Shown: positions 15,737 to 40,028, counted from the first letter of the whole stretch. The stretch is 63,432 nucleotides of DNA, filler included, from a bacterium (GCA_046331705.1; 3 parts of 3 records of this genome joined end to end with filler, not necessarily neighbours in it); one strand, 5' to 3'. The notes: generated from the letters alone by a model not told the origin. Numbers and translations: made by a program.

Positions 15737-16336
15737 TCACTCCGGATCGGCGCCGCAGAGGACGTCGATCGAGATCTCGATGGCGTCGAAGGGTTCGGCG
15801 CGGACCTTGTCGGGGCGGGCGGCGTTCACCGCCACGGTGTAGTGGCCGTTCTCCCAGCGATACACGGTGAGCGTGCCGCGCTCCGGCTCGACCAGCCAGT
15901 AGTGCGGGATCTGGTGGCGCTCGAAGACCTGGAATTTGTGGACGGTGTCGTTGGCGGCGTTGCTCTCGGAGACGATCTCGCAGATCCAGTCGGGGCGCAC
16001 GCGCACGGGCCTGCCGCGGGGCCGCTCGGCGAGGCGGTCGCGCCTGAAGCCGACGACGTCCGGGCGCACCACCTGATGGGGCTCGAGCTCGATGTCGCAC
16101 TCGGTGACGATCCACCAGCCGCCCGGTGCGTCGCCGCCGCCTCCGCCATCGCCGCGTCCGTGGAAATGGAGCCCCACGGTTCGGTCGATGAGGCTCTGCG
16201 CGAGGCTGTGCTCGAAGCTGGGCGCCGCCTTCTCGACGATCACGCCGTCGAGGATCTCGGCGCGCACGTCGTCCGGCAGCTCGAGGAGGTCCTCGAACGT
16301 CGCGAGCCGATCCCGCTTCCGCGCGGTGCTCTCCAT
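15737..16336 (-). CDS. Uma2 family (PD-(D/E)xK) endonuclease
   Basis: RAEILDG, PSFEH, VRPDV, PDWICEIVSES..DTVHK..YWLVEP. Confidence 0.92.
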   Translation of the reverse strand: MESTARKRDRLATFEDLLELPDDVRAEILDGVIVEKAAPSFEHSLAQSLIDRTVGLHFHGRGDGGGGGDAPGGWWIVTECDIELEPHQVVRPDVVGFRRDRLAERPRGRPVRVRPDWICEIVSESNAANDTVHKFQVFERHQIPHYWLVEPERGTLTVYRWENGHYTVAVNAARPDKVRAEPFDAIEISIDVLCGADPE

Positions 16337-16528
16337 GGCGTGCCCATCGTAAACCACGCCGCCGGCCGCCGGTACCGGCGAGCGCGGCGCGCGGCGCGTG
16401 TGCGGGATTGTTCGCAATCGTCAAACAATGCACCAACGCGCGGGAAGTGCCTTGACTCGCGGGAATCGCGCGGGGTAGAGCAGCGGCACACGTACGCGTT
16501 CACCGTTTCACATCCAGGCGAGGGGAAC

Positions 16529-17254
16529 ATGATTCGACATCACATTCGGAAGGTCGGAAGTGCCGTGGCGCTGGTCTCGTTGCTGGGCGGGTGCTCGGCC
16601 ATGCAGCCGTCGGACGAGGGCACGATCTCGAAGAGCGCCGACGTCGACTTGCAGCCGATTCCCAAGGTCAGCCCGCCGCACGCTGGCAAGAAGGTCGCCG
16701 CGGTGGCGTTCGTGAACCGTTCGATCTCCCAGTACGCGTTCCTGGGCGACTCGGCGCCCGACTTCCTGGCCGAGTTCCTGCGCGAGGCCGGCTTCCGCGT
16801 GGTCGAGGGCACCGGGGCTCAGCTCGCGGCGGTGAACAAGGAGCTCGAGTACAACACCTCGGGCCTCGTGGATCCGGCGACGGCGGCCACCCTCGGCAAG
16901 CAGCTCGGCACCGACTACGTGTTCGTGGGCTCGGTGACGGACTACGAGGAAGTGAAGGCCAAGGGCGGCGGCGGTCTCAACGTGATGGGCTGGGGCCTCG
17001 GCTCGGGCTCGGGTGGCATCACCTACAACATTCAGGTGTCCGGCCGGCTCGTGGACATCCGCACCCGCGAGATCCTCGCGTCGAAGAGCACCTCGTTCAA
17101 GAAGACCTTCAACGTGAAGGGCGGCAGCATCGAGACGCCGTGGGGCGGCGCCAACATGGACCAGGAGGTCGAGGTCTCGAACCAGACCGGCGGCAAGGTC
17201 CTGCAGGTGTGCCTGAACCGGCTCATGATCGAGATCGTCGGTCAGCTCAAGTGA
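16529..17254 (+). CDS. CsgG/HfaB family lipoprotein
   Basis: LGGC lipobox; VAAVAFVN, FRVVE, SGLVDPATAATLGKQLGTDY..GSVTDY, RLVDIRTREIL. Confidence 0.85.
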   Translation: MIRHHIRKVGSAVALVSLLGGCSAMQPSDEGTISKSADVDLQPIPKVSPPHAGKKVAAVAFVNRSISQYAFLGDSAPDFLAEFLREAGFRVVEGTGAQLAAVNKELEYNTSGLVDPATAATLGKQLGTDYVFVGSVTDYEEVKAKGGGGLNVMGWGLGSGSGGITYNIQVSGRLVDIRTREILASKSTSFKKTFNVKGGSIETPWGGANMDQEVEVSNQTGGKVLQVCLNRLMIEIVGQLK

Positions 17255-24740: not shown

Positions 24741-25949
24741 ATGTCCAGCCAGTCGAAGTCCACGCAGTCGAGCCCCGTCATCATCTTCGATACCACCCTG
24801 CGCGACGGCGAGCAGTCCGCGGGGGTCGCCTTCTCGCTCGCCGACAAGATCGAGATCGCCCGCGACCTGGCCGCGATGCGGGTGGACGTGATCGAGGTCG
24901 GCTTTCCGGCGGCCTCGCCCGCCGAGCACGAGGCCGTGGCGGCGATCGTGCGCGCGGTCCGCGGGGTTCGCGTCGCGGCGCTGGCGCGCGCCGTGGAGAG
25001 CGACGTCGACGCCGCCGGCGCGGCGCTCGAAGGCGCGGAGGCGCCGCGCATCCACGTGTTCTTGTCGGCGAGCGAGGTCCATCTGCGCCACCAATTGCGC
25101 AAGGACCGCGAGCAGGTGCTGCGCATGACCGACGCCATGGTGCGGCGCGCGCGTCGCTACACCGACGACGTGGAGTTCAGCCCGATGGACGCCACTCGCT
25201 CGGACGTGGCGTTCGTCGCGGAGGTGGTGCGCGTGGCGATTCGCGCCGGCGCGAGCACGATCAACGTGCCGGACACGGTGGGGTGGGTCACGCCGATGGT
25301 GCTGGCCGCGCGCATCGAGGAGCTGCGCCGGCGCGTGCCGGAGATCGACGCGGCGGTGATCTCGTTCCACGGCCACGACGATCTGGGCTTGGCCACCGCC
25401 AACGCGCTGGCGGCCGTCGGCGCGGGCGCGCGCCAGGTCGAGGTCACGGTGAACGGCATCGGCGAGCGCGCCGGCAACACGCCGTTGGAGGAAGTGGTGA
25501 TGGCGATCCACGTCCATGGCGAGGCGATGGGCGTCCACACCCACGTCGACACCCGCGGCATCCACCCGATCTCGCGCAAGGTCGCGGAACGCAGCGGCAT
25601 CGGAGTCGCGGCGAACAAGGCGGTCGTCGGCCGCAACGCCTTTCGGCACGCGTCGGGCATCCACCAGGACGGAGTCGTGAAGTTCCGCGAGACCTACGAG
25701 GTGCTGGATCCCGCCGCGGTCGGGAACGAGCGCGGCAGCGAGATCGTGCTGGGCAAGCTCTCGGGGCGCGCCGGCTTCCGTGCCCGCGCCGCCGAGCTGG
25801 GCATGGCGCTGGCCGATCACGAGCTGGACGCGGCGTTCGAGCGGTTCCAGGAGATCGCGGACCGCTCGCGCGAGGTCGGCGACGACGTGGTGCGCGAGAT
25901 CGTGCGCTTCGCGCGCGGCGAGGCGGAGTGTCATGCATCCGTGGCATGA
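24741..25949 (+). CDS. leuA: 2-isopropylmalate synthase, short form lacking the C-terminal regulatory domain
   Basis: IFDTTLRDGEQ, HGHDDLG, GIGERAGN, NKAVVG.NAF.HASGIHQDG, LGKLSGR; AGGAG RBS; Leu-rich leader. Confidence 0.9.
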   Translation: MSSQSKSTQSSPVIIFDTTLRDGEQSAGVAFSLADKIEIARDLAAMRVDVIEVGFPAASPAEHEAVAAIVRAVRGVRVAALARAVESDVDAAGAALEGAEAPRIHVFLSASEVHLRHQLRKDREQVLRMTDAMVRRARRYTDDVEFSPMDATRSDVAFVAEVVRVAIRAGASTINVPDTVGWVTPMVLAARIEELRRRVPEIDAAVISFHGHDDLGLATANALAAVGAGARQVEVTVNGIGERAGNTPLEEVVMAIHVHGEAMGVHTHVDTRGIHPISRKVAERSGIGVAANKAVVGRNAFRHASGIHQDGVVKFRETYEVLDPAAVGNERGSEIVLGKLSGRAGFRARAAELGMALADHELDAAFERFQEIADRSREVGDDVVREIVRFARGEAECHASVA

Positions 25950-26013
25950 TGCGCGGCGATCGTGCGGCGCGCGCCGTGCGAGCCGCACCACGATTCTTGG
26001 GGAGGTCCCCGCC

Positions 26014-28035
26014 GTGAGCGATTCGACCGCCGAGCTCCAGGCCTTGCTGTTGCGTCTCGAAGCGCGCTTCAGCGATCTCGAGCGTCGCTACGATGCGCTG
26101 CTTCGTCAGGTCGAGGGAGCGCCGCCGGCGGCGAGCGACGACGAGCCGCCGGATGCGGTCGAGCTGCTCGCCACCCTCGCGAACGGCAGCGACGAAGAAC
26201 GCCTGGACGCGGAAGCGCGGCTCGCCGCCCTCGGCCCCGAGGCGGTGGTGGGGCTCGCGGTGGGATTGGTCGATCGCCGCGCCGAGCTGCGCGCGAGCGC
26301 GGCGCAGGCGCTCGCCAAGCTGGGCGCCGCCGCGCGCGCGGCACTTCCCGGGCTGATCGCGGCGCTCAAGGATCCCGACGCCGACGTGCGGCGCGCCGCC
26401 GCGGCGGCGCTCGAGGCCCAGGGCCCGGCGGCGAAGGTGGCGGTGCCGGCGCTCGTGGAGATGAGCATCAAGGACGCCGACGGGGGCGCGCGCAGCCGCG
26501 CGGCGCTGGCGCTCGCGGCGATCGGCCCGGGAGTGCGGGCTGCCGTGCCCGCGCTCATCGGCGCCCTCGGCGATCCTGCCGCGGACGTGCGCCAGGGCGC
26601 GGCGCAGGTGCTCGGCGAGATCGGCCCGCCGGCGGAGGCGGCGCTCGGCGCGCTGGTCGTGGCGCTCAAGGACGAGAACTGGCGGGTGCGGCGCAGCGCC
26701 GCGTGGGCGCTCGCCGAGATCGGAGTCGAGGGCGACGGCGTCGTCGCTGCGTTGCTCGAGGCGGTGCGCGACAGCGAGTGGGGCGTGCGCAAGTCGGCAG
26801 CGTGGGCGTTGGGCCGCGTGCGCGGCGAGTCGAAGATGCTGGTTCCCGCGCTCGGCGAGCGGCTTCGCGACGAGGTCGCCGACGTGCGCTACTGGGCCGC
26901 GCAGGCGCTCGGCGACCTCGGTCCCCACGCGCGTGCCGCGGTGCCGTGGCTGATCGACGCGCTCAAGGACGTGGACCATCACGTGCGACGGCGCGCGGGG
27001 GAAGCGCTGGTTGCGATCGGTGCCGACGCGGTCGTGGGATTGGGCGCGGCGCTCAAGGACGACGCCCCGGAGGTGCGACAGGCGGCGGCGCAGGCGCTGG
27101 CGGAGATCGGACCGGCGGCCAAGGCCGCGGTCCCGGCGCTCATCGAAGCGGCGCTCACCGACCCCGACGTGGCCGCGCGCAGCCGCGCCGGCATGGCGCT
27201 CGGCGCCATCGGGCCCGCGGCGCGCAACGCGATCTTGCCGCTGGTCGAGGCGCTCAAGGACGAGCTCGGCGAGGTGCGGCAGGCGGCGGCCCGCGCGCTC
27301 GGGGACATCGGCCCGGTCGCGAAAGGCGCCGTGCCGGACCTGATCGAAGCGCTCAAGGACCCGCTCTGGAGCGTGCGGCGCAGCGCCGCGTGGGCGCTCG
27401 CCGAGATCGGACGCGAGGCCAAGGACGCGGTGCCGGCGCTCATCGAGGCGCTCCGGGATCGCGAGTGGGGCGTGCGCAAGTCCGCGGCCTGGGCGCTCGG
27501 CACGATCCATCCCGATCCGGCAGAGGCGGTGCCGGCGCTGATCGCGGCGCTGGGCGATTCGGCGAGTGACGTGCGCTACTGGGCCGCGCAAGCGCTCGGC
27601 CAGCTCGGCTCCGATGCGCGCGCGGCGCTGCCGGCGCTGGTCAAGGCGCTCGAGGACGCCGACGCGCACGTGCGCCGCCGCGCCGCTCAGGCGGTGGGCT
27701 CGCTCCACGCCGGCGCGGCGAGCGCCGTGCCCGCGCTGGTGCATTTGCTGGAGGACGCGGCGGTCGAGGTTCGCGTGGCGGCCGCCCAGGCCCTCGGCGA
27801 CGTCGGCGGAGAAGCGCACTCCGCCGTGCCCGCGCTCACCGACGCCCTCGGCGACGCGGCCACCGAGGTCCGGCAAGTGGCCGCCCAGGCGCTCGGTTCG
27901 ATCGGAGCGCAGGCCGCGTCGGCGATTCCCGCGCTCGATCACGCGCTTCAGGACGAGATCGCGTGGGTCCGGCAGGAAGCCGCGCAGGCGATCGAGCGGA
28001 TCCGCGCCACCGTGGGCGGCGGCGCCGTGACCTGA
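26014..28035 (+). CDS. HEAT/PBS-lyase repeat protein
   Basis: Many AVPALIxALxDxxxxVRxxAAxAL repeats; GGAGG RBS. Confidence 0.92.
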   Translation: MSDSTAELQALLLRLEARFSDLERRYDALLRQVEGAPPAASDDEPPDAVELLATLANGSDEERLDAEARLAALGPEAVVGLAVGLVDRRAELRASAAQALAKLGAAARAALPGLIAALKDPDADVRRAAAAALEAQGPAAKVAVPALVEMSIKDADGGARSRAALALAAIGPGVRAAVPALIGALGDPAADVRQGAAQVLGEIGPPAEAALGALVVALKDENWRVRRSAAWALAEIGVEGDGVVAALLEAVRDSEWGVRKSAAWALGRVRGESKMLVPALGERLRDEVADVRYWAAQALGDLGPHARAAVPWLIDALKDVDHHVRRRAGEALVAIGADAVVGLGAALKDDAPEVRQAAAQALAEIGPAAKAAVPALIEAALTDPDVAARSRAGMALGAIGPAARNAILPLVEALKDELGEVRQAAARALGDIGPVAKGAVPDLIEALKDPLWSVRRSAAWALAEIGREAKDAVPALIEALRDREWGVRKSAAWALGTIHPDPAEAVPALIAALGDSASDVRYWAAQALGQLGSDARAALPALVKALEDADAHVRRRAAQAVGSLHAGAASAVPALVHLLEDAAVEVRVAAAQALGDVGGEAHSAVPALTDALGDAATEVRQVAAQALGSIGAQAASAIPALDHALQDEIAWVRQEAAQAIERIRATVGGGAVT

Positions 28036-28106: not shown

Positions 28107-29216
28107 GTGACCGTGCAATCGTCGGATTACCGGGTTCGTTATCTCGAGCGGACGCTCGCCGGGCGCTACGCGTTTCGGCGCTGGGTCGGTGAGGGCGGCT
28201 TCGCCGCGGTCTACGAGGTCGAGCACGTTCCCTCGGGACGCCGTGAGGCGCTCAAGATCCTGCTGCGCGATCACCGCGACGAGCAGGTCTTCGCGCGGCG
28301 CTTCGAGCGCGAGGCGCGCTTGGCGGCGAGCCTCGATCACCCCAACATCGTGTCGATCCACGAGTACGGGGATGCCCACGGCATCTTCTGGTACTCGATG
28401 CCGTTCATCGAAGGCGCGTCGCTGGCGAGCGTCCTCGCGCGCGGGCCGCTCGCGTGGTGGGAGGCCGTGGCCCTCGCGCTGCCGATCGTGGATGCGCTCC
28501 ACCATTGCCACGTGCGGGGCGTGGTCCATCGCGACGTGAAGCCCGAGAACGTGCTCGTCGGCACCGACGGCGAGCCGCATCTGATGGATTTCGGGTTGGC
28601 GAAATCGGCGCAGGACCCGGACCTCACGCGCAAGGGGCTCCTGGTGGGGACGCCCGCGTACGTCGCGCCCGAGCAACTCGCCGGAACGGGGGTGGATGGG
28701 CGCGCCGATCTCTACGCGGTCGGCGTGATGCTCTACGAGATGGTGAGCGGAGGGCTGCCGTTCGTCGCCGATGGTTCCACGAAGGCGCTGCTCGCGCGGC
28801 TCGAACAGGAGCCCACGCCCATCGCGGAGCGGGTCGTGGGGATCGCGCCGAGCCTCGCGCAGGCGATCCACACCGCGCTCGCACGCGAGCCCGCGGCGCG
28901 GTTCGCCGACGCCGCGACGATGCGCGCTGCGCTCGCGGAGCTGTTGCCTCACGACGGTGACGCCGAGTCCCGGCGCCGCGCGGCCGTGCGCGCCCGCGTC
29001 GAGGCGGCGCGTGACGCGCCGGCTCCCGACGAGTCACGATGCTCGACCACGGGAACGCTCACGATCGCAGATTCCCCGGTCGCGGCGCACCGAGGCAATC
29101 GGCGGCCGGTCGTCGCCGTGGCGCTGACGGCGATCGGCGGTCTGCTCGCCGCGCGGCTCGTCGCCGCGCTTCGCGAGAGTCGCGCGGCTCGCGCCCAGCC
29201 GCGACGCGAGCCGTGA
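28107..29216 (+). CDS. Hanks-type Ser/Thr protein kinase
   Basis: GEGGFAAV, ALK, HRDVKPEN, DFG, GTPAYVAPE, DLYAVG. Confidence 0.95.
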   Translation: MTVQSSDYRVRYLERTLAGRYAFRRWVGEGGFAAVYEVEHVPSGRREALKILLRDHRDEQVFARRFEREARLAASLDHPNIVSIHEYGDAHGIFWYSMPFIEGASLASVLARGPLAWWEAVALALPIVDALHHCHVRGVVHRDVKPENVLVGTDGEPHLMDFGLAKSAQDPDLTRKGLLVGTPAYVAPEQLAGTGVDGRADLYAVGVMLYEMVSGGLPFVADGSTKALLARLEQEPTPIAERVVGIAPSLAQAIHTALAREPAARFADAATMRAALAELLPHDGDAESRRRAAVRARVEAARDAPAPDESRCSTTGTLTIADSPVAAHRGNRRPVVAVALTAIGGLLAARLVAALRESRAARAQPRREP

Positions 29217-29228: not shown

Positions 29229-29672
29229 TCAGGCCGCTGGCGTCGTCTCGCGGCGCAGACGATCCCAGGCGCGTTGCGCGCGGACCAGGAGCGCGTTCCG
29301 CGCATCGTAGGTCTCGTTGGCCTTGGCCCAGCTCACGCAGTTGAACTGAGCGCAGAGCTCCGGGTAGTCGTGCGCGTCGTGGATCGTGCAGCGGTAGCTC
29401 GGTTGCGCGCCGTCGCCGCCGATCTCGAGATGCCTGCACCAGCCCGCGTCCACGGTCACGGGATGGCGCTCCTTGCAGCAATCGTCGGCGCCGGTGGCGG
29501 GCGCGGGATCGAGCGTGTAGCCGACGCGACGAAGGAAACGCCGGTAGCGTGGCGTCGTCTCGCGCAGCCGGAGCGTGATCCTGCAGCAGCCGCCGCACGC
29601 GCGACACAGCGCGGACCCGATGTCGCGCTCGTGGAGGTCGAGCCGGATCGACGGAATCTCGCTGGTGCTCAT
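29229..29672 (-). CDS. CxxCxxCC (YkgJ-like) cysteine cluster protein
   Basis: CRACGGCC..CRHL..CTIHD..YPELCAQFNC; ATGA overlap with the upstream gene. Confidence 0.85.
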   Translation of the reverse strand: MSTSEIPSIRLDLHERDIGSALCRACGGCCRITLRLRETTPRYRRFLRRVGYTLDPAPATGADDCCKERHPVTVDAGWCRHLEIGGDGAQPSYRCTIHDAHDYPELCAQFNCVSWAKANETYDARNALLVRAQRAWDRLRRETTPAA

Positions 29673-31479
29673 GGCACGGACCGCGTCCACGCATCGAGAT
29701 CGCCGTAATCGAAGTCGTCCTCGAAGATCACGGTGCCGCAGCGCGTGAAGAAGATCATGGACGGGAAGCGGGGCGGCAGCGTCGCGGCGGTATCCACCGT
29801 GCCGGCGAGCGCCGTGTTGAAGCGGAGCGTGAGATCCGGATCGTCCGCCAGCCATGCGCTGGTGCGGACATCGATCTTCCCGGGCGTGGAGAAGGTCGCG
29901 TTGCTCGGCAAGCGCAGCGCGCCGAACACGGCGAGCTCCGTCGACGCCTTGATCGTGAGCGGACCCGTCGCCGTCAGCGCGACGTCCTCGGGCACCCAGA
30001 AGCACGTGTACTGAAAGGAGCCGGTGAACGCCGTTCCGGGAGAAGGGTGCGGGTGCCGTCGCCATCGCCGTCCGCGAGCTCGGGATCGCCGCCGCAGAGA
30101 CCATCGCCGTTGGTGTCGGCCTCGAGCGCCGGATCGGCGTCGCAGTTGCGAAAAAACGGCCCCACGGGAGTCGGCACGGTGACGGATTGGGCGGTGGCGT
30201 AGGTCGGATCGGGCGACGCCACCAGCGCTCGCGCGTCGATCGCGGTGGCGGCGCGTGCGGCGCCTCCCACGGCGCCTCCCACGCCCAGTGCCAGCGCGAC
30301 GCAGCCGAGCTGGTAGAGCCAGCGGATGGCGGCGTTGAGGCTGGCCCGCGCGACGCGTCGGCGATCCTCGGTGGGATTCGAGACCAGGTCGAGCGCGCAG
30401 GTGTCCTGTGTAGCGCAATCCGTGGGGCTCGAGTCCGATCGGCACAGGTCGTTGCCGCACGTCGAGGACCCGTCGGCGACGCACAGGTCGGAGACGAAGC
30501 AGGCGCCGGAGGAGTCCGAGAGGCAGCGGTCGGGGCCGCAGCTGCCGGCGGAATCGCTGGCGCAGGTGTCGCTCGAGCAGGTGCCGGATTGGTCGGAGGT
30601 GCAGAAGTCCTCCGTGCAGTGTCCGGACGCGTCCGCGGTGCAGCCATCGCTCAGGCACGTGCCGGAGGAGTCGGATAGGCACGCGTCGTCGATGCACGAC
30701 CCCGAGGCGTCCGCGCTGCATTCGCCGCTGGCGTCGGCGAGACACTCGTCCGGACAGGCCGGACCGCCGTCATTCGCGCAATCTCCGGAGGTATCGGATC
30801 GGCAGCGGTCCGACAGGCAGGTGCCGGACGAGTCGCTCAGGCAGGTGTCGGTTTCGCAGCTCTTCGAGGAATCGGAGGTGCAGCCGTCGCCCGTGCAGCT
30901 TCCGGACTTGTCGGAGACGCACCCGTCGTCCCCGCAATCCCCGGACTTGTCCGAGATGCAGGCGCCCGAGAGGTCGCTCGGGCACTCGCCGCTGGCGCTG
31001 GGGCCGGCGTCCAGCGTGCACGCCCCCGAGGAGTCGGCGACGCATCGGTCGGTGACGCAGTGCTTGGACGCGTCGCTCACGCATGCGTCGGTGGTGCAAT
31101 CCCCCGAGGCATCCGACTGGCACGTGCCGCTCGTGTCCGCGCCGCAAGCGTAGGTGTCGTCGCTCGAGCACGCGGGGCCGGTGTCGAGGGTGCACGCCCC
31201 CGAGGAATCGGAGACGCAACGATCGATCGTGCAGTCCAGCGATCCATCGACGTCGCAGAGGTCTTGGGTGGTGCAGGTGTGTCCGGCATCGCCGCTCGCG
31301 CAGGCATCGGCGGTGCTGCAGACGTCGTCACCGCACGGCGCCCGTGCCCGCGCCGGCGTCGCGGTTGCGAGTCGCGAGAGGTTCACGCGAGCGAGCGCTG
31401 GCTTGGCGGGCGCGAGCCCGATCGCCAGCCAGCCACCCGTGAGCCGTGCCAAGCCTGCCAAGAAACGTCGCCGGAACAT
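29669..31479 (-). CDS. Tat-signal protein with 46 Cys-X2/3-Asp(Glu) motifs, putative radical-SAM-modified (ranthipeptide-type) substrate; apparent 1-nt deletion near 30042
   Basis: MFRRRFL..PALA; GGAGG 6 nt upstream; frame of ORF 29974-32580 continues in the frame of ORF 29669-30745 (PGTAFTGSF..IFEDDFDYGDLDAWTRSVP*). Confidence 0.8.
30388..31335 (-). repeat. Coding CxxD repeat array (316 aa)
   Basis: Manual count: 40 CxxD, 5 CxxxD, 1 CxxE; frequent unit CxSDxSGxCxxDx. Confidence 0.92.
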
Positions 31480-31481
31480 GT

Positions 31482-32948
31482 TCATCCTCCCGGCGCGGCC
31501 ACGGGCCGGACGAAGGCATCGTCGGGAACTCCGAGCGCCGCGTTGATGCTCATCGCGCACTCGATCTGGTGGCGGATGAGCCGGCAGCTCCGCGCCTGAT
31601 CGGGCTGCTCGAGGCCGCCGCTCGCGTCGACGGCGTGCTTCCAGCAGCCTCCCCCGCATTGGTAGCGAGCCCAGCAAGCGTTGCAGCCGGGACGTGCATC
31701 GACCGTGAGCGACCGCATCCGCTTCGCGAGTCGATCGTCGCAGCCGGTCCACACGTCGCCCATCCGATAGTCGGGCATGCCCACGAAGCGGTGACAGGGA
31801 TAGAAGGCGCCGTCCTGCGCCAGCGCCAGGTAGCTCCGCGCGGCCCCGCAGTGGTGGGCGAGGCGCTCCTCGACGACGCGGGTGCTGCGCACGAAGCGCA
31901 CCAGGTTGGTGAAGGGCAGCGGTCGGTTGCGTCGGACGCGGTCGACGAGAACGGCGGCGAGCCGCTCGGTCTGTTGCTCCAGCGCGGCGATGTCGTCGGG
32001 GCCGACGCACGCCGGGCTCGCGCCGATCGCGGGCTCGACGTGGACCGAGCCGAACCCGAGCCTGAGCAGATGGTCCACGATCACGGGCACGTCGACGAGG
32101 CCGCTGGCGACCGTCACTCGTGCCGGCACGCGCCCGGGGCGCGCGGCGACGAGCCGCCGGACGCCGGGCAAGATCTGGTCGTAGGTCGGCGCGCCGCCGG
32201 CGAACCGCCGATTGGCGTCGTGAATCATCGCCGGACCGTCGATCGAGACCTGGCAGCCCACGCGCTCGGCGATCAGGAACGAGACGACGTCCTCGTCGAG
32301 CAATGCGCCGTTCGTCGACAGCGAGAAGCCGAGGCGCTTGCCGCGGGCACGCGCCAGCGCGCGCGCCTCGGGCACCAGCGTCCGGATCAGCTCGAACGCG
32401 AGCAGCGGCTCGCCGCCGAAGAACACGACGTCCACGTCCCGCGCTCTTCCCGACGCATCGAGGAGAAAGGCGATCCCGGCGCGCGCGGTCTCGATCGACA
32501 TGCCGCACTCGTCGGACCCGTAGAGGTGCGCCGTCGAGCGCCCGGGCTCGTGCTCCTCGGCGCCGTAGCAATAGCGGCAACGCATGTTGCAGCCGTGCGT
32601 CACCATCAGCTCGAGGTGGCGCAGACCGCGCGAGCGCGCAGCCGCGCGGGATGCCGCGCGCGGCGCGCGGCCGAGGATTCCGCGGGTGCGGAGCAAGGCG
32701 AGCCCCGCCTCCACGTCCCTGCGACGATATCGGTACGCGAGCGAGCGCGCCGGATCTCCGCTATCGGGCGTCGCCAGCGCGGCGATCAGCTCCGCGACCA
32801 GCGGCGTGATCTCGTAGAAGAGCTGCGAGGCGACGTCGAAGAGGATCTGCCTGCCGAGACGCTCGAAGACGTGCACTTCGGCGAGGCGCTCGCGAGGAAT
32901 GTGCGCCGTGGGCCTGCGCCGCACGACGCGCTGGAGCCAGCTGCCCAT
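31482..32948 (-). CDS. Radical SAM/SPASM peptide maturase with N-terminal RRE-like domain (PapB/CteB/QhpD-like)
   Basis: VHVFE..ILFDVAS..FYEIT RRE-like start; CNMRCRYC; FFGGEPLL; SIDGP; SPASM CGAARSY..YPCHRF..CNACWARYQCGGGC..SC. Confidence 0.93.
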   Translation of the reverse strand: MGSWLQRVVRRRPTAHIPRERLAEVHVFERLGRQILFDVASQLFYEITPLVAELIAALATPDSGDPARSLAYRYRRRDVEAGLALLRTRGILGRAPRAASRAAARSRGLRHLELMVTHGCNMRCRYCYGAEEHEPGRSTAHLYGSDECGMSIETARAGIAFLLDASGRARDVDVVFFGGEPLLAFELIRTLVPEARALARARGKRLGFSLSTNGALLDEDVVSFLIAERVGCQVSIDGPAMIHDANRRFAGGAPTYDQILPGVRRLVAARPGRVPARVTVASGLVDVPVIVDHLLRLGFGSVHVEPAIGASPACVGPDDIAALEQQTERLAAVLVDRVRRNRPLPFTNLVRFVRSTRVVEERLAHHCGAARSYLALAQDGAFYPCHRFVGMPDYRMGDVWTGCDDRLAKRMRSLTVDARPGCNACWARYQCGGGCWKHAVDASGGLEQPDQARSCRLIRHQIECAMSINAALGVPDDAFVRPVAAPGG

Positions 32949-33115: not shown

Positions 33116-34894
33116 TCACCCGCCGCCGGCCTGGAAGCGCCGTACGAACGCGAGGAAATCGAGCCAGCTTCCGTCCACCGAGAGCTTGCCGCTAGCGAGC
33201 GCCGCGGCGGGGTTCTCGAGCTTGAGCGCCAGCTTCTTCCAGGTGAGCGAATCGGTGGTGAGCGTGGCCACGGGAGTCGGCGTGCCGGGCAGCGGCTCGC
33301 CGGCGACGACCTCGGCGATGCCGCGCCGCACGGTCACCACGAAGCGCTCGCCGGTGTCCGAGAAGCGCCACACGACGGACTCGTGGAGGTCGAGCGTGCT
33401 CGCGGCATCGAGTCGCGTGGCCATCGTGCGGAAGAAGAGATCCAGCGGAATCGGCGCCAGCGCCTCGTCGTCCGGGTGGGACTCCGCGCTGGCCGCGAGG
33501 CCGTGCTCGGCCTCGTAGGCGCTCTCGAGGAGGTAGGCACGTCCGTTGGTGTTGGCCGTACCCGCGGCGAGCCGACGCAGCGCGCGCGCGAACGTCGCGT
33601 CGATGTCTGCGCTCGTGCTGCTCGGTCCGGCGCTCGCGCGGAGCTTGCCGAGCAGATGGACCGCCCAGCGCGCATCGCCGCCGTCGAGGGCTTGCTTCGC
33701 CTGCGCGAGGACGGCGTCCGGCCCGCCCATGAGCCCCACCTCGCGGCGCGCGATCTCGTCGGGCGGCAGCGGGTAGAGGGCTTCCGGACGGCCGTCGAAC
33801 CAGCCAAGCGCGTTGGTGTAGATCGCGCGCGCCGACCAGCCGATCTCGCCGTAGGTCTCGGCGAGGAACGGGCTCGCCCGCAGGTGCTCGGGCAGCACGA
33901 TCGACGCCGCGAGCGCGTCGAGGGGCTGGCCTCGGTTGGCGCCGCGCACGACCGCGTCACGCACCCACTGGATCCCGTCGCGGTAGGTGGTGAGCGTGGT
34001 GGCGATCTCGTCGCGACCGTGAAGCGGCCCCGTGTGCGAGGGAACCAAGTGCGCGGGCGCCTTGCGGCGCATGGCATCGAGGCTCGCGATCCACTCGTCC
34101 ACGGGGCGCGGGCGCGTGCCGCGGATGGTGTAGAGGTTGGGGAAGGCGCGGTAGAGGTTGTCGCCGGAGAGCAGCGTGGACTCGCTGGGAATCCACACGA
34201 AGAGCTGGTCGTCGGTCTCGCCGTGGGCCTCCACCAGCTCGAAACGCACGCCGCCGAGCTCGAAGCTGGTCTCGCCGCGGAAGGTGCGCGTCGGCATGCG
34301 CAGGCCGGAGTGAAGCGCCGCTTCGAGGTCGGGGCGCCGTCCGAGCGACGAGCACGGCAGCTCGCTCTCGCTCACGTGGCGGCCGAACTGCCGCCAGCCG
34401 CGGGTGCGCTGCGCGGCCTGGAACACCCCGTATTGCTCCACCAGGTGCTGGGTGAACGCCTGGGTGGCCCAGATCTCGGTGCCCGGCTCGACCCACGCCG
34501 AGGCTCCGCCCACGTGGTCGATGTGGCTGTGCGTGAAGATCACGGCGCGCACCGGTCCGGGTGCCCGCGCCAGCAGCGCCGCGCGGATGGGCGTGGCGCG
34601 CGCGGGGGACATGGAGGTGTCCACGACCACGTTTCCGTCGTCGGTGCGCACGAGGATCGTGTTCGCCAAGTCTTGGCCGAGCGCCACCCAGACGCGCGGC
34701 GTGACCTGCTCGACTCGCGGGTCGCCGGCGTTGGCGCGACAGAGCTCCGCGAGCTCGGGCGGCGCTTGCGCCATGTCCGCCGGGGGGGCGGCGCCTCGCG
34801 GGCGATCGCACGCGCACGACAGCAAGCCGACGAGCACGAATGCTCCGCGCGCGAGCGCGCGGCCGGTGAAGAGCGAAGGCCGTGGACGACGCAT
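33116..34894 (-). CDS. Alkyl sulfatase (SdsA1-like: MBL fold, dimerisation, SCP2)
   Basis: THSHIDHVGG, HGETDDQ, FPNLYTIRGT, PSH, GWFDG. Confidence 0.92.
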   Translation of the reverse strand: MRRPRPSLFTGRALARGAFVLVGLLSCACDRPRGAAPPADMAQAPPELAELCRANAGDPRVEQVTPRVWVALGQDLANTILVRTDDGNVVVDTSMSPARATPIRAALLARAPGPVRAVIFTHSHIDHVGGASAWVEPGTEIWATQAFTQHLVEQYGVFQAAQRTRGWRQFGRHVSESELPCSSLGRRPDLEAALHSGLRMPTRTFRGETSFELGGVRFELVEAHGETDDQLFVWIPSESTLLSGDNLYRAFPNLYTIRGTRPRPVDEWIASLDAMRRKAPAHLVPSHTGPLHGRDEIATTLTTYRDGIQWVRDAVVRGANRGQPLDALAASIVLPEHLRASPFLAETYGEIGWSARAIYTNALGWFDGRPEALYPLPPDEIARREVGLMGGPDAVLAQAKQALDGGDARWAVHLLGKLRASAGPSSTSADIDATFARALRRLAAGTANTNGRAYLLESAYEAEHGLAASAESHPDDEALAPIPLDLFFRTMATRLDAASTLDLHESVVWRFSDTGERFVVTVRRGIAEVVAGEPLPGTPTPVATLTTDSLTWKKLALKLENPAAALASGKLSVDGSWLDFLAFVRRFQAGGG

Positions 34895-35024
34895 GAGCGA
34901 ACCCCCCGTCGCGGCCGCCGTCGCGACCGGGTTTGGATGAGTCAACGAGGCGCGGCATGTTAGCGCCCGCGCGCGCGATCGTCCGCGCCGCGTGCTCGTC
35001 GACTCTCGCCGCCCGTCCACCCGC

Positions 35025-36431
35025 GTGAACTCCTCTCCGTCGTTCCAGCGTTCACGGTCCGGTCGTGACCCACGCTTCGCGTTGGCGCTCGTCGCGCTCG
35101 CGCTGAGCTGGGCGAGCGCCCGCGCGCAGACCGCTGCGGCGCCGGCGCCCGAGGCGCCGAAGGACATCCTGCTCGTGAGCTTCGATGCGCTCCGTCAGGA
35201 TCATCTCTCGGTGTTCGGTTACGCACGGCAGACGAGCCCCACGCTCGAATGGCTGGCGAGCCAGGGGACGGCGCTGCGCGACGTGGTGCCCGCCGGGCTC
35301 TCGACCAAGACGTCGCTCACCTCGCTGGTGACCGCCCTCGAGTACCGCACCCATCACATCCTGCAGAAGAACGAGCACCTGCCGGCGAGCATCGTCACGG
35401 TGGCCGAGGCGCTGCGCGATCAGGGTTACGCGACGGCGGGGTTCGTCGCGACACCGCACCTCGCCGCGGAGCTCGGTTACGACCAGGGCTTCGATCGCTA
35501 CGAGGACTTCGCCGGCGCCGGCAAGCACGCGGTCAGCGCCGCCGAGGTGCGCGATCGCGTGCTCGCGTACCTCGACGAGCCGCTGCCGGCGGGCCGCCGC
35601 GCGCGCTTCGTCTACGTGCACATCCTCGAGCCGCACCCGCCGTGGCTCGATCCTTCGCCGTGGCTCACGACGAAAGAGCCGGGGAAGCGCATCTTCGCGT
35701 GTGTCGAGCTGCCGCCGCCCGAGAAGGTGGCGAAGATCACGCCCCAGCGGCTCACCAACCTCGTGGCCAAGTACGACGGCGCGATCCTCGCGGGCGATCG
35801 GGCGCTGGGCGCGGTCGTGGACAAGCTGCGCACGCAAGGACGGCTCGCGCGCACGGTCATCGGCGTCACCACCGATCACGGGCTCGAGCTGCTCGATCGC
35901 TACTCGGCGAGCCACGGCTGGAACCCGTTCGACGAGGTGGCGCGCGGGTTTCTGGTGCTCTACGACGGGTCGCGTCCCTGGGGGCCTGCGCCCAGGATCC
36001 AGGCGCGCAACGTCGACGTGCTGCCGACCTTGCTGGCGCGAGCCGGTGCGTCGCTGGTGCCGAGCTTCCAGGGCGTCGACGTCTTCGGTGCCACCGCCAA
36101 GGTGCCCGAGATCGCCTTCAGCCGCGGCAACCATTGCGTCGCGGTGCGCACGCTCACGCACAAGCTGATCTGGATCGACTTTCCCGCCGACGTCCCGTTC
36201 CCGGCGAGCCTGACGCGCGGCTTCTCGCTCTTCGACCTGCGCACCGATCCCGGCGAGCGCCGCGACGTGAAGGGCGAGCAACCGGAAGTCTTCGCCAAGC
36301 TCCGCGACGCGTTCCTGGCGTTTCAGCGCGACGAGGGCGCGAAGGCCGAGGATCCCGCCGATCCCAAGCACACCCAGGGCCTGAGCCCCGAAGCGCGCGA
36401 ACGCCTCGAAGCGCTCGGTTACGTCGAATAG
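35025..36431 (+). CDS. Sulfatase/alkaline-phosphatase superfamily protein
   Basis: LLVSFDALRQDHL, STKTS (degenerate FGly motif), EPHPP, YDGAI, TDHG, DVLPTL, LEALGYVE. Confidence 0.88.
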   Translation: MNSSPSFQRSRSGRDPRFALALVALALSWASARAQTAAAPAPEAPKDILLVSFDALRQDHLSVFGYARQTSPTLEWLASQGTALRDVVPAGLSTKTSLTSLVTALEYRTHHILQKNEHLPASIVTVAEALRDQGYATAGFVATPHLAAELGYDQGFDRYEDFAGAGKHAVSAAEVRDRVLAYLDEPLPAGRRARFVYVHILEPHPPWLDPSPWLTTKEPGKRIFACVELPPPEKVAKITPQRLTNLVAKYDGAILAGDRALGAVVDKLRTQGRLARTVIGVTTDHGLELLDRYSASHGWNPFDEVARGFLVLYDGSRPWGPAPRIQARNVDVLPTLLARAGASLVPSFQGVDVFGATAKVPEIAFSRGNHCVAVRTLTHKLIWIDFPADVPFPASLTRGFSLFDLRTDPGERRDVKGEQPEVFAKLRDAFLAFQRDEGAKAEDPADPKHTQGLSPEARERLEALGYVE

Positions 36432-37481: not shown

Positions 37482-40028
37482 ATGGCGATCTTCGGTGGTG
37501 GCACGACTCGAGTGATCCGCGGCGACGTAGCCAAACGGGTCCTCGCGAAGGATTGGACCGACGAGGCCTCGCGCGATCAGCTCTTGCAAGAGCTGCAGCG
37601 CACGTCGCGCGATCTCAAGCCGGAAGAGCTGATCGCGCTGGTCGCGCACGGCGACGTGCCGGTGCGGGCGGTCGCCGAGAAGATCGTGCACGATCGGCTC
37701 GACGCGAAGTTCGCCGACGTGCTGTTCAAGGCGACCGAGAAGCTCGATCCCAAGATCCAGTCGATGGTCTTCCACGCCGCGGCGCGCGCCCGGCCCGACG
37801 TGGCGATCGCGCAGCTCACGCGGCTGGTCACCGAAGGTAACCCGAGCACGGCCGTGCGCGCGATGAGCGCGCTGGCGACGGTCCCCGCGTCGCGTTCGGG
37901 CCCGGCTTTCGCGCGCTCGCAGGCGAGCGGTGCCTTCCTGCGTCTTCTCGCGCACGAGAAGCCGCAGATCCGCAGTCTCGCACTCTTCAAGGTGGCGGAG
38001 TCGCGCGAGCTTCTCGCCGACCAGCGGATGCAGCGCGCCGTCGTGGCCATGGCCGACGACGTCGAGGAACGGATCCGCCTCAAGGTCCTCGAGATGCTGG
38101 TCGACATGGACCCGGGCGAGGCGATTCGCGTCTGTCTGCAGCACATCACCGACACCTCGGCGGCGGTGCAGCAGTCGGCGGTGCGGGCGCTGAGCGCCTC
38201 GCTCGATCGCCTAGAGCACAAGGAAGGCGCCGAAGAGCACCTGGTGGCGTTGCTCACCGACGGCACCGAGGTGGTTCGCAACGGCATCCTCGGGATCCTC
38301 CTGAAGCGTCCCGACGCGGGGCGATACCTGCGCAGCCTGCTGGTGGTCTGCAAGAACCTCACGGGCTGGATGCGCGAGCGCACCGTCGATTCGCTGCGCA
38401 GCCACGGCGACCGACTCTCGGGCGACGTCGTCCGGCTCATGGAGGACCCCGACGACGACGTCCGTGCGATGGCCGTCACGCTGGCGGCCGTGCTCACCGC
38501 GCCCGAGGTCCAGCCGGCGCTGCTGCGGCGGCTCAAGGACACCGACTGGATGATCCGGATGCTCGCCGCGGAGGCGCTGGGGCGCTCGGGAGATCGGGCC
38601 GTGGTGCCGGCGCTCATCGAGGGTCTCGGTGATCCGGAGAGCGGCCTCACCTGCCTCGAGGCGCTGGCGATCCTGCGTGATCCCAGCGCCTTGGTGCAGA
38701 TCGTCCAGCAGCTCGGCAGCGCCAGGATGGAGGTGCGAACCGCGGTGCTGGACGCGCTGCGTGCCTTCGACGATCCGCGTGTCCACAGCGTCTACGAAAA
38801 GGTGATCCAGGGCGATCCCGCCGAGGAAGTGCGGCAGCGCGCGGCCCAGCATCTGTCCGAGATCCGCGCCGGTCGCACCGCGGCGGCGCCGCGCCTGCGC
38901 GAGTCGTTGCTCGCCAACTACAAGGCGCGGGTCACCGGCCCGCTGACTCCGATCGAGCAGCTCCTGATCCAGGCCCGCGAGGCCGACGCCTCCGACGTCC
39001 ACGTCTTGGTGGCCGCGCCGCCCATGATGCGCGTTCACGGCAAGCTCCAGAACCTGCCGGGCGAGCCGTACACGGAGGAGTCGAGCCGCGACCTGATCCT
39101 CGCGATCCTCGACGCCGAGCAGCGCGCGCGTCTCGAGAAGGATCGTCAGCTCGACTTCTGTCACTCGATAATCGGCGCGGGTCGCTATCGCTGCAACGTG
39201 TACGTCGAGCGCAAGGGGCTGGCCGGCTCGTTCCGGCTCATCCCCAAGGAAGTGCCGACCATCGTGGACATCGGCTTGCCCAGCCACCTCGCCGACATCG
39301 TCAACTACAACCAAGGGCTGGTGGTGGTGGCGGGTCCGTCGGGCTCGGGCAAATCCACGACGCTCGCGGCGCTGGTGAACCTCATCAACGAGCGCCGCCG
39401 CAGCCACATCCTCATCCTGGAAGACCCCATCGAGTTCGTGCACCCGCCGCGCCTCTGCCTCATCAACCAGCGCCAGACCGTGCTGCACACGCGCTCGTTC
39501 GCCGCGGCGCTGCGCGGCGCCCTGCGCGAGGACCCGGACGTGATCGTGGTGGGCGACATGCGCGATCCCGAGACCGTGCGCCTCGCGATCGAGGCGTCGG
39601 AGACCGGGCACCTCGTGATCGGCACCATGAACACCACGTCCGCGCCCAAGACCGTGGACCGCATCATCGAGTCGTTCCCGCCCGGCGAGCAGTCGCAGAT
39701 CCGCACCATGCTCTCCGAGACGCTGCGCGCGATCGTCTGCCAATCGTTGCTGCCGAGCTCGGACGGCGAGCGGGTGGCGTGCTTCGAGGTGCTCATGGGC
39801 ACGCTGGGAGTGCGGAACCTGATCCGCGAGTCGAAGACCTTCCAGCTGGTGGGCCAGATGCAGATCGGCGAGAAGCAGGGGCACATGACCGTGGACGCGT
39901 CGCTCGCGCGGTTGGTGGAGACGGGCAAGCTCACCGGCGAGCAGGCGTATCTGCGCGCGCAGAACAAGGCGAACTTCGAGGCCATGGTGACGCCCGAGTT
40001 CTTGTCGGGTCGCCTGATCGTGGGATGA
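37482..40028 (+). CDS. HEAT-repeat / PilT-PilU-family ATPase fusion
   Basis: Long N-terminal HEAT region; ASDVH, GPSGSGKST, EDPIE, LREDPD, GDMRD, TMNT. Confidence 0.9.
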   Translation: MAIFGGGTTRVIRGDVAKRVLAKDWTDEASRDQLLQELQRTSRDLKPEELIALVAHGDVPVRAVAEKIVHDRLDAKFADVLFKATEKLDPKIQSMVFHAAARARPDVAIAQLTRLVTEGNPSTAVRAMSALATVPASRSGPAFARSQASGAFLRLLAHEKPQIRSLALFKVAESRELLADQRMQRAVVAMADDVEERIRLKVLEMLVDMDPGEAIRVCLQHITDTSAAVQQSAVRALSASLDRLEHKEGAEEHLVALLTDGTEVVRNGILGILLKRPDAGRYLRSLLVVCKNLTGWMRERTVDSLRSHGDRLSGDVVRLMEDPDDDVRAMAVTLAAVLTAPEVQPALLRRLKDTDWMIRMLAAEALGRSGDRAVVPALIEGLGDPESGLTCLEALAILRDPSALVQIVQQLGSARMEVRTAVLDALRAFDDPRVHSVYEKVIQGDPAEEVRQRAAQHLSEIRAGRTAAAPRLRESLLANYKARVTGPLTPIEQLLIQAREADASDVHVLVAAPPMMRVHGKLQNLPGEPYTEESSRDLILAILDAEQRARLEKDRQLDFCHSIIGAGRYRCNVYVERKGLAGSFRLIPKEVPTIVDIGLPSHLADIVNYNQGLVVVAGPSGSGKSTTLAALVNLINERRRSHILILEDPIEFVHPPRLCLINQRQTVLHTRSFAAALRGALREDPDVIVVGDMRDPETVRLAIEASETGHLVIGTMNTTSAPKTVDRIIESFPPGEQSQIRTMLSETLRAIVCQSLLPSSDGERVACFEVLMGTLGVRNLIRESKTFQLVGQMQIGEKQGHMTVDASLARLVETGKLTGEQAYLRAQNKANFEAMVTPEFLSGRLIVG

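Follow-up and report, generated by a model that had tools for sequence, protein, structure and literature searches.

A bacterial radical SAM/SPASM maturase paired with a Cys-Asp array protein: a candidate system for protein-scale thioether stapling

The window analyzed here, by which we mean the whole stretch of 63,432 nucleotides (filler included) from a bacterium (GCA_046331705.1), contains three adjacent genes on its minus strand between positions 29,229 and 32,948. The first of these (31482..32948) encodes a 488-aa radical SAM (rSAM)/SPASM maturase with an N-terminal RRE-like domain, which is identical to a 488-aa NCBI-called protein. It is followed by the gene of the array protein (29669..31485) and by a gene for a small Cys-cluster protein of 147 aa, apparently a distant YkgJ-like accessory (29229..29672). 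The array protein begins with 50 residues carrying RRxFL, a GG-containing weakly hydrophobic stretch, and PLxR(I/V)N (31336..31485), which precede a 316-residue array of Cys-x2/3-Asp/Glu motifs (residues 51-366, 30388..31335), the predicted modification core. Next is an internal segment resembling a signal peptide or membrane anchor (30223..30387), consisting of a basic stretch, WLY, a hydrophobic run of 12-15 residues, and an AxA-like site, and last a conserved, beta-rich, and weakly beta-solenoid-like C-terminal domain (29669..30222), which also holds a frame break. The original prediction described the three genes as chained by ATGA overlaps, and both ATGA junctions are indeed present (31485-31482 and 29672-29669), but the first overlap is probably a 2-nt gap. 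A GGAGG sequence (31490-31486) directly abuts the first ATG and is situated 6 nt ahead of a second ATG at 31479, which is the equivalent of the start used by the intact 610-aa homologue in locus L001. Judging from this spacing and from the L001 start, the true start of the array gene is probably 31479, which would give 603 codons instead of the 605 counted from 31485.

It should be noted that the array gene as written in the window is split, a defect that had been overlooked earlier. Reading from 31485 runs into a stop at 29974-29976, and the ATGA at 29669 closes a frame that is offset by one base. When aligned with L001 and L002, the window is one base short at 30041..30042, and contigs from three sludge runs of three different studies (X1, X6, and X7) all contain an extra G on the plus strand behind 30041, with a second X7 contig having the extra base behind 30037. 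Because the additional base recurs in three independent runs, the natural array gene is one intact frame of 605 codons.

The array itself is highly regular. When the minus strand is translated beginning at 31485, 46 Cys appear between residues 51 and 363, and every one of them has an acidic residue at +3 or +4. Our recount returned the same division that was first reported, 40 CxxD, 5 CxxxD (Cys 56, 62, 71, 329, and 357), and 1 CxxE (Cys 244), and when the 316 residues were shuffled 20,000 times at constant composition, no shuffle reached 46 motifs (mean 15.9, maximum 27). Among the 45 Cys-to-Cys gaps, 23 span 8 residues and 14 span 5 residues, resulting in a 13-residue unit. The same spacing of acid to Cys is found across 52 homologues, in which 1,607 of the 1,704 Cys located ahead of the C-terminal domain (94%) have an acid at +3 or +4, including 1,396 at +3, and the arrays of relatives contain up to 60 motifs. 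AlphaFold2 gave the array no confident fold (pLDDT <50), and the modelled geometry lends no support to ring formation. At the DNA level, a weak 39-nt period was detectable at 30872-30961.

The third gene encodes an invariant CxxCxxCC, a CC pair, and four further invariant Cys, for a total of 10 invariant Cys in 12 homologues. Its match to Pfam PF03692 is below the cut-off (E 0.42, 11.8 bits versus 23, profile positions 2-72 of 85), whereas its atlas feature score to PF03692 clusters is 0.94 and 29 of 30 matches are in PF03692 clusters. It is found in 4 of the 8 related loci and in 3 of 5 genomes; being absent from half of these loci, it is not essential.

The maturase is a member of the radical SAM superfamily (PF04055 Radical_SAM, 42.1 bits versus a cut-off of 29.5) and of its SPASM subgroup (TIGR04085, 53.8 bits versus 27). 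The CX3CX2C cluster motif (C120/C124/C127) is invariant in 37 family members, and the Cys of a seven-Cys SPASM pattern for two auxiliary clusters (C367-x12-G-x4-C385, C422xxC425x5C431x3C435, and C455) all align with Cys of CteB. CteB is also the closest solved structure (5wgg_A), matching along its full length (E 1e-54, query 22-470), and residues 22 to ~110 align with the CteB N-terminal domain, which is described as a leader-binding RRE in the review PMC8326336. The CxxxCxxC and the SPASM Cys initially proposed for the maturase were recovered, and its N-terminus is a candidate RRE. With respect to specific families, the best NCBIfam match is the nif11-like rSAM model TIGR04064 at 269.9 bits, about half of its cut-off of 518.7, followed by the models for QhpD (TIGR03906, 256.9 bits versus 453), the SCIFF maturase (TIGR03974, 250.4 versus 425), and PapB (NF047865, 246.7 versus 340), while those for anSME (TIGR03942, 85.9 versus 349.45) and CrpC (TIGR04463, 77.9 versus 525) score far lower. 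Since the enzyme falls under every named equivalog cut-off, its product is not readable from family membership.

We also constructed a tree from the 37 family members and 78 more distant rSAMs. The family forms a single clade (support 0.999), which groups (support 1.0) with 8 QhpD-like or PapB/nif11-like sequences and apart from 70 others, of which all 15 labelled representatives are SCIFF maturases above cut-off. Short peptides with C-x2-3-D/E motifs (4-8 Cys each) are encoded next to three of the 8 neighbouring rSAMs, and a QhpC-like gene next to one; the flanks of the window rSAM contain no QHNDH subunit genes. The proposed phylogenetic check places the enzyme in a QhpD/PapB-like clade and not with anSME, in agreement with the NCBIfam scores (247-270 versus 86 bits). 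These comparisons support assigning it to the thioether-forming QhpD/PapB/SCIFF radiation, as what appears to be a separate clade within the QhpD/PapB-like ranthisynthases.

A search of the rSAM neighbourhoods for (CxxD)n proteins showed that the enzyme-array pairing is conserved. The array gene is located beside the rSAM in all 8 related loci (L001-L006, L108, and L109), whose records are labelled in four ways (Deltaproteobacteria, Brocadiaceae, Thermodesulfovibrionales, and Syntrophobacter). By contrast, no array gene accompanies the rSAM in any of the 80 loci examined whose enzymes share 26-39% identity; it was likewise absent from two distant loci, L007 and L008. Within the order of G001, both genes occur in the same four of five genomes, and the fifth returned neither with these queries. 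In addition, the longest contig of 22 of the 51 array-protein clusters is equal in size to that of an rSAM cluster, from which co-location is presumed rather than looked up. Taken together with the clade of the enzyme, the conserved pairing makes an enzyme-substrate relationship with Cys-to-Asp thioether stapling the best reading, and we consider it reasonably probable, on the sequence evidence, that the locus is a two- to three-gene maturation module that staples such thioethers onto the array protein.

In this module, the conserved N-terminal part of the array protein, as presumptive leader, would be bound by the RRE-like domain of the rSAM, which would then move through the acidic array of 316 residues. 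The enzyme would take a hydrogen from the Asp side chain of every Cys-x-x-Asp and join the Cys sulfur there, and the predicted outcome is up to 46 small thioether rings, approximately one per 5 to 8 residues, on a ~600-residue protein. The YkgJ-like Cys-cluster protein may assist on an optional basis, possibly as a redox partner. The opposite end of the protein from the predicted modified array is formed by a beta-rich domain of secreted/surface type, with the far end in relatives carrying TIG, fn3, dockerin, CARDB, or an IPTL-CTERM anchor. We infer the Asp beta-carbon as the acceptor by analogy, because of the motif and the chemistry of PapB and QhpD. PapB joins Cys S to Asp C-beta, also takes Glu, and works with Cys and Asp placed 0 to 6 residues apart, and a conserved Asn in its leader is proposed to contact the RRE (PMC9413430); the array proteins have an invariant Asn within PLxR(I/V)N. 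The sactisynthases GggB and QmpB resemble ranthisynthases in sequence (PMC10288494), and given this resemblance an alpha-carbon link is conceivable as well.

Several characterized systems share parts of this arrangement. One is CrpC/CrpA of Methanococcus voltae, in which ranthionines are formed on the 28.8-kDa repeat protein CrpA at C-X-X-Q/D motifs (PMC13692751, September 2026). There, as in the window locus with its RRE-like enzyme, an RRE-rSAM-SPASM enzyme is found beside a Cys-rich repeat protein together with a small companion gene. The crosslinks are on a protein and not a peptide, as predicted for the window array, and a conserved N-terminal region serves as leader, the role proposed for the start of the window array protein. 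The two systems also differ: CrpC belongs to TIGR04463, for which the window rSAM is far below cut-off, CrpA has 10 repeats of 17 residues, whereas the window array has 46 motifs in 13-residue units, and CrpC/CrpA is archaeal, whereas the window family is bacterial. In further contrast to CrpA, proteins of the window family start with a twin-arginine-like region, carry a signal-like segment in their interior, and finish with a C-terminal domain of secreted type. The bacterial family appears to be undescribed, although bacterial CrpA relatives, among which it may figure, are listed in Supplemental Data set 1 of PMC13692751. The original claim that the modification would be far larger than in known ranthipeptides holds for peptides, but protein-scale ranthionine crosslinking had already been published for CrpC/CrpA. 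Compared to PapB and its substrate PapA (freyrasin), the window system has similar Cys-x(n)-Asp motifs, an RRE-like domain, and the conserved Asn, and PapB makes Cys S-Asp beta-carbon thioethers; PapA, however, acquires six rings at CX3D in a short peptide, versus up to 46 predicted at mostly CX2D in a ~600-residue protein. QhpD, an rSAM/SPASM enzyme with an RRE, makes Cys-Asp and Cys-Glu thioethers in a periplasm-destined protein subunit, but QhpC, the gamma subunit of quinohemoprotein amine dehydrogenase, receives three crosslinks in a subunit of ~100 residues within an enzyme, versus the 46 sites of the array. CteB is the closest solved structure, yet the SCIFF maturases are a separate clade (70 sequences), and their substrates are ~45-residue peptides with a Cys-Thr gamma-thioether (PMC8326336). 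The occurrence of the enzyme-array pair in several bacterial lineages suggests that peptide-style ring stapling may have been applied to a whole protein.

The original prediction further held that Tat exports the array once modified, and here the evidence points in two directions. In favor of this, the N-terminus contains RRRFL followed by a weakly hydrophobic stretch (mean hydropathy 0.6-1.3), with a basic residue and an AxA-like site ~45 residues into the protein. An alignment of 41 proteins shows no variation at R6, F8, and N35; among 55 N-termini selected for carrying both motifs, 42 have RR and 13 have KR; and TatC is encoded in all five carrier genomes. The N-terminal 50 residues are therefore a candidate Tat signal, a candidate RRE-bound leader, or both. 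TIGR01409 and PF10518, which we take to be the relevant Tat-signal models, were among the Pfam/NCBIfam Tat-signal profiles that matched none of seven array-protein N-termini. The internal segment, by comparison, implies the opposite topology. Across 38 homologues, an average of 4.8 K/R occupy the 20 residues before the hydrophobic run versus 0.37 after it, 30 of the 38 have an AxA-like site there, and AlphaFold2 modelled the segment as a lone helix (residues 384-412 of the L001 protein). This charge bias together with a single membrane crossing would put the array on the cytoplasmic side.

Accordingly, an alternative for the export step only is that the array is not exported by Tat: RRxFL...R(I/V)N would be an RRE leader alone, and the internal segment a real signal peptide or signal-anchor that sends the C-terminal domain out, leaving a stapled array in the cytoplasm, tethered or freed by signal peptidase. 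We view this as a serious possibility, albeit not quite a probable one. The C-terminal domain is confidently modelled (pLDDT ~90, residues 418-575 of the L001 protein, AlphaFold2), with a best structural neighbour at Z 5.5. The alternative is favored by what follows the segment, as precomputed Pfam annotation of the 51 homologous clusters returned domains of extracellular type (TIG in 23 clusters, IPTL-CTERM in 5, and a single cluster each for dockerin, fn3, and CARDB), of which dockerin, fn3, and IPTL-CTERM were confirmed by our own profile search of the homologues. Moreover, P0187, P0190, and P0191 have the same array-plus-segment cassette ahead of a different passenger, and P0204, a stand-alone relative of the C-terminal domain, bears the same WLY motif in its N-terminal signal. 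A short paralogue in L003 terminates immediately behind the hydrophobic run, which thus resembles a tail anchor whose basic side faces the array. Arguing against this alternative, besides the Tat-like N-terminus and TatC, is P0185, in which the array is joined directly to the C-terminal domain and a C-terminal anchor without the internal segment, such that the N-terminal signal must export everything, although this is a single protein and possibly an assembly artefact. A polyanionic array retained in the cytoplasm would also have no obvious use. Hydrogenase small subunits, which are Tat substrates, carry a twin-arginine signal at the N-terminus and a tail anchor at the C-terminus, and their cofactor- or modification-bearing domain is completed in the cytoplasm. 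Their layout is matched by the L003 short paralogue, whereas the full-length array proteins differ in having 200-400 residues of extracellular-type domains after the hydrophobic segment and a basic flank on the array side, a misfit with tail-anchor topology. More speculatively, and in our estimate improbably, the twin-arginine signal could double as the leader, with the RRE holding the Tat signal like a proofreading chaperone until ~46 rings are made and the stapled polyanionic rod is then exported, while the cassette of array and internal signal would be portable and sit ahead of diverse surface passengers (beta-helix, TIG, fn3, dockerin, or IPTL-CTERM). If true, a single reading frame would combine a pair of export signals with two parts that take different routes.

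A second alternative concerns the chemistry. The array could be a disulfide-bonded or metal/calcium-binding acidic repeat, with the rSAM making another change (an alpha-carbon thioether, epimerisation, or Cys oxidation), modifying few sites, or acting on another target. The array composition (14.6% Cys, 17.7% Asp, 18.7% Ser, net charge -51) would suit cation binding, and an acidic, Ser/Gly-rich repeat whose Cys count is even would also be suitable for a stalk that is disulfide-bonded or binds calcium or another metal. The scores below every equivalog cut-off and the resemblance of some sactisynthases to ranthisynthases agree with this reading as well, and the authors of the CrpA study suspected a metal-related role (PMC13692751). 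However, the near-uniform placement of an acid at +3 or +4 corresponds to the donor-acceptor pattern of PapB and QhpD substrates, which disulfides do not require, and no Pfam or NCBIfam repeat family (e.g., TSP type 3 or LDL-A) matched the array at E up to 10. The strict pairing and the C-x2-3-D/E peptides or QhpC-like gene adjoining the nearest rSAM clades argue in the same direction, and we regard this alternative as unlikely.

Lastly, a sulfatase-family gene is situated two genes upstream (34992-36431), and it is highly improbable that the rSAM serves it as an anaerobic sulfatase-maturating enzyme. In favor of such a role, genes for a protein matching Pfam Sulfatase (93.8 bits) and for an MBL-type alkyl sulfatase are found just upstream of the rSAM, and in L003 a sulfatase-like ORF adjoins the rSAM of that locus (27.75% identity over 400 residues). 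On the other side, the anSME model score is poor, PDB anSME matched only the rSAM core (E 2.5e-11, versus the full-length CteB match), the neighbouring sulfatase has no C/S-x-P-x-R near its N-terminus (the sole pattern match is CVAVR at residue 382), and the flanks fetched for L004, L005, L006, L108, and L109 contain no sulfatase genes. Contigs from one RNA-library run covered part of the rSAM gene, providing a weak hint of its transcription.

The three genes of the candidate modification system lie closely spaced on the minus strand of the window, which has a G+C content of ~71%. They encode a radical SAM/SPASM protein of 488 aa (31482-32948, hereafter rSAM), a Cys-rich array protein starting at either 31485 or 31479, and a Cys-cluster protein of 147 aa (29229-29672). 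Both of the ATGA stop/start overlaps proposed to link these genes are present in the sequence, and translation from 31485 reproduced the previously counted 40 CxxD, 5 CxxxD, and 1 CxxE motifs, with the 46 Cys located at residues 51-363. When the 316-residue array (30388-31335) was shuffled 20,000 times, 46 Cys with an acidic residue at +3 or +4 were never reached (mean 15.9, maximum 27). Gaps between consecutive Cys are 8 residues in 23/45 cases and 5 residues in 14/45, and these alternate, indicating a 13-residue unit. The array has a net charge of -51 and consists of 14.6% Cys, 17.7% Asp, and 18.7% Ser. A GGAGG sequence abuts the first ATG of the array gene and is 6 nt ahead of the second ATG at 31479, while the intact homologue at the related locus L001 begins at the equivalent of this second ATG. 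Given this spacing and the L001 start site, 31479 is the likelier predicted start. Neither tRNA genes nor Rfam families were found across the window, and a sigma-70-like promoter was likewise not found; the sole terminator-like site falls within the gene and is at chance level.

In the window, the array frame from 31485 terminates at 29974-29976, and the frame reaching the ATGA at 29669 is offset from it by one. Alignment with two close relatives placed the discrepancy at 30041-30042, where the window is one base short. The stretch is represented in 14 DNA runs holding 60-78% of its sampled words, all of which are sludge, wastewater, or digester metagenomes, and contigs from three runs of three studies contain an extra base behind 30041 that restores a single 605-codon frame. 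Since this base is present in three independent runs, the break is an error or rare variant of the window record and the natural gene is intact. Aside from this one-base defect, which the original prediction did not mention, its overall observation was borne out. Metatranscriptome contigs from the sludge run X16 cover only 31469-31766 and 32294-32500 with at least 99% match, falling in the rSAM gene and its junction with the array gene; these are a weak hint of transcription, as DNA carry-over is possible.

The association of the enzyme with an array protein is conserved. A search over one genome per species identified eight loci, and the expected (CxxD)n neighbors were indeed found beside the rSAM at all six loci having 50-80% identical enzymes, with 33-56 Cys per ORF. 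The two distant loci (rSAM identities of 23% and 35%) have no adjacent (CxxD)n giant. The records of the six loci carry four different labels: Deltaproteobacteria, Brocadiaceae, Thermodesulfovibrionales, and Syntrophobacter. The pair is also present in two further genomes from the order of the closest relative, for a total of 8/8 related loci. A metagenome scan using the rSAM alignment, the patterns of which were very general, returned only relatives of 26-39% identity. These were used as controls and tree outgroups and were not counted as family, and a (CxxD)n ORF was found beside the rSAM at none of 80 such loci. Within the order of the closest relative, both genes occur in the same four of five genomes, and the fifth has neither using these queries. 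Among 401 sampled genomes from the phylum of the Syntrophobacter MAG, the array protein was found in that MAG only. Searching 1.84 billion representatives with a profile yielded 131 proteins at E<=0.001 and 44 at E<=1e-30, and the weak matches include low-complexity false positives (e.g. P0205, P0213, P0219, P0221, and P0233). The array-protein family is real, rare, and patchy in its distribution. Of the 1,704 Cys that precede the C-domain in 52 homologues, 1,607 have Asp/Glu at +3/+4, and the number of motifs in full-length members has a median of 40 and a maximum of 60. The source names examined for the family proteins are all "hypothetical", "uncharacterized", or "SPASM domain-containing". 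Some genomes contain tandem array genes, as at L003 (7469-8518 and 8576-10585) and L004 (9704-10993 and from 11076). The first L003 copy (350 aa) terminates directly after the hydrophobic segment, and the L004 copy terminates within the WLY motif, with two beta-propeller-repeat genes between this copy and the rSAM.

The rSAM contains a CX3CX2C cluster motif (C120/124/127) and a canonical seven-Cys SPASM pattern, and the cluster and SPASM Cys are invariant in 37 homologues. It aligned over its full length with the SCIFF maturase CteB (5wgg_A, E 1e-54, query 22-470 to chain 4-450), including the N-terminal domain. Scores were under the cut-off for all of the best curated family models: nif11-type maturase (269.9 bits), QhpD (256.9 bits), SCIFF maturase (250.4 bits), PapB (246.7 bits), anSME (85.9 bits), and TIGR04463, the CrpC family (77.9 bits). 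With scores below all of these cut-offs, the enzyme belongs to none of the PapB, QhpD, or CrpC curated families. In a tree of the 37 family members and 78 more distant metagenome rSAMs, for which 20 + 6 representatives were labelled with NCBIfam, the family formed a single clade (support 0.999) and grouped (support 1.0) with eight sequences that are QhpD-like or unclassified PapB/nif11-like; the QhpD-like neighbors score 391-423 bits, below the cut-off of 453. The remaining 70 rSAMs are separate from the family, and all 15 of their labelled representatives are SCIFF maturases above cut-off. Clustering of the rSAM with the anaerobic sulfatase maturases, which would have spoken against the original prediction, was not observed in this tree. 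Three of the eight neighbor rSAMs are adjoined by short peptides whose 4-8 Cys lie in C-x2-3-D/E motifs, and one by a QhpC-like gene. From the tree placement and these neighboring genes, we can conclude that the nearest relatives of the enzyme have Cys...Asp/Glu pairs as their actual or predicted targets. Short Cys ORFs of this kind beside unclassified PapB/nif11/QhpD-like metagenome rSAMs, at L023 (4384-4497), L074 (2211-2369), and L076 (7388-7588 and 7616-7786), are candidates for new ranthipeptide precursors.

The comparison of loci, the tree, and the profiles all support the pairing and enzyme class of the earlier interpretation, while for its chemistry, and for every step past the conserved pairing, we infer a route that we consider reasonably probable. 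By analogy with CteB, whose N-terminal domain is described as a leader-binding RRE (PMC8326336), the RRE domain of the rSAM would bind a leader within the N-terminal 50 residues of the array protein. This region includes invariant Arg, Phe, and Asn residues (RRxF...PLxR(I/V)N), with the R(I/V)N conservation resting upon the invariant Asn column of two alignments, and a conserved leader Asn of PapA has been proposed as an RRE contact (PMC9413430). The rSAM would then join each array Cys to the Asp three residues further, proceeding along the array. QhpD links Cys to either Asp or Glu within a protein subunit. PapB is described as making a Cys-Asp bond at CX3D and as accepting Glu and spacings of 0 to 6 residues (PMC9413430), and CrpC was shown in September 2026 to install ranthionines on CrpA, a 28.8-kDa repeat protein that contains C-X-X-Q/D motifs (PMC13692751). 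The window system would work like PapB/freyrasin and QhpD/QhpC, with CrpC/CrpA as its closest likeness.

Protein-scale ranthionine stapling is already published as a concept, and the CrpA/CrpC paper is the only protein-scale precedent found in the literature searched. The novelty lies in the clade of the enzyme, the scale of 46-60 motifs, a 13-residue unit with two Cys, and a fusion architecture with two signals. No prior description of the bacterial array family was found in the freely accessible main texts searched; it should be noted that bacterial relatives of CrpA are listed in Supplemental Data set 1 of PMC13692751, which may bear upon this novelty. If the proposed chemistry is true, no ranthionine substrate proposed to date would be as heavily crosslinked as the array protein, which has 46 motifs (up to 60 in relatives), compared with 6 rings in freyrasin, 3 crosslinks in QhpC, and, for the sole characterized protein-scale case of CrpA, 10 repeats. 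Stapling by an rSAM at protein scale would also be extended beyond methanogens to bacteria living in wastewater sludge and anaerobic sediments, via a different enzyme clade. The natural 13-residue repeat unit could serve enzymology as a minimal substrate and could aid the engineering of rigid, acidic, protease-resistant polymers. Candidate roles for the product include a stalk, a cation or mineral binder, or an adhesin spacer.

The two-signal architecture poses a testable question of how a protein whose modification has to be completed in the cytoplasm is routed to the surface. The N-terminus of the array protein is Tat-like: RR, replaced by KR in one subfamily, is accompanied by a GG-containing stretch of weak hydrophobicity, a basic residue, and, at ~residue 45, an AxA-like site. 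TatC was found in 5/5 carrier genomes tested. Tat-signal profiles matched 0/7 array-protein N-termini, although matches this short and weak may be removed by the HMMER filters. Directly after the array is a conserved internal segment (30223-30387) in which a basic stretch and a WLY motif precede a run of 12-15 hydrophobic residues and an AxA-like site, with an average of 4.8 K/R before the run and 0.37 after. Assuming a single membrane crossing, the N-terminal and internal signals place the array on opposite sides. It is quite possible that the array remains inside, since this signal-peptide-like segment sits right behind it and the modules beyond it in relatives are of extracellular type (TIG, fn3, dockerin, CARDB, or IPTL-CTERM). 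Export of the array through the N-terminal signal is favored by P0185, a single array protein that has no internal segment. The same array and internal-segment cassette precedes a different, repeat-rich passenger in P0187, P0190, and P0191. P0204 is related to the C-domain but lacks an array, and its N-terminus is an ordinary signal bearing the WLY motif. When the N-terminal signal region and the internal segment were compared profile to profile, the probability was 17.8%, which does not show homology. An AlphaFold2 model of the L001 array protein built with 40 sequences had a mean pLDDT of 52.6, with the array <50 throughout, the internal segment as a lone helix, and the C-domain (29669-30222 in the window) as a beta-rich structure at pLDDT ~90. 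Foldseek returned no PDB matches at E<=0.001 for the modelled structure, and no usable match of the C-domain was found in the Atlas. A VIA wide search placed the EtpA adhesin beta-helix first (Z 5.5), followed by TPS domains and ice-binding proteins (Z 4.2-4.5), a weak resemblance of the common beta-solenoid type that carries no functional implication. In the KRGFLKW subfamily (e.g. P0130 and P0134), the basic stretch before the internal segment is also KR with a conserved Met ahead, and several database genes are called from this Met onward, which may reflect either truncation of the call or a real internal start.

In the 147-aa product of the third gene, 10 Cys are invariant, among them those of a CxxCxxCC motif and of a CC pair. 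It matched the Pfam CxxCxxCC family below threshold (E 0.42) and YkgJ-type clusters with an Atlas feature score of 0.94. The gene was found in 4/8 related loci and 3/5 genomes, and its product is probably an accessory protein, possibly a redox partner. No conserved protease or transporter was found across the related loci. The gene immediately upstream of the rSAM, likewise on the minus strand, encodes an MBL-fold alkyl sulfatase (Alkyl_sulf_dimr, Lactamase_B, Alkyl_sulf_C; 33116-35167), beside which is a divergent sulfatase-family protein (34992-36431, plus) without a C/SxPxR motif. A sulfatase-like ORF (27.75% identity) is also found beside the L003 rSAM, and none at the more distant loci. 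A role for the rSAM as a sulfatase maturase was rejected because the upstream sulfatase has no C/SxPxR target and the sulfatase genes are absent from the more distant loci. The surroundings otherwise look Myxococcota-like, with a 751-aa all-HEAT-repeat protein (25780-28035), two Ser/Thr kinases (28107-29216 and 57929-60721), one of which has TPR repeats, and a T2SSE-type ATPase-HEAT fusion (37482-40028), all on the plus strand. The window also encodes a VWA protein of 1807 aa (6768-12191) as well as one that is CsgG-like (15842-17254).
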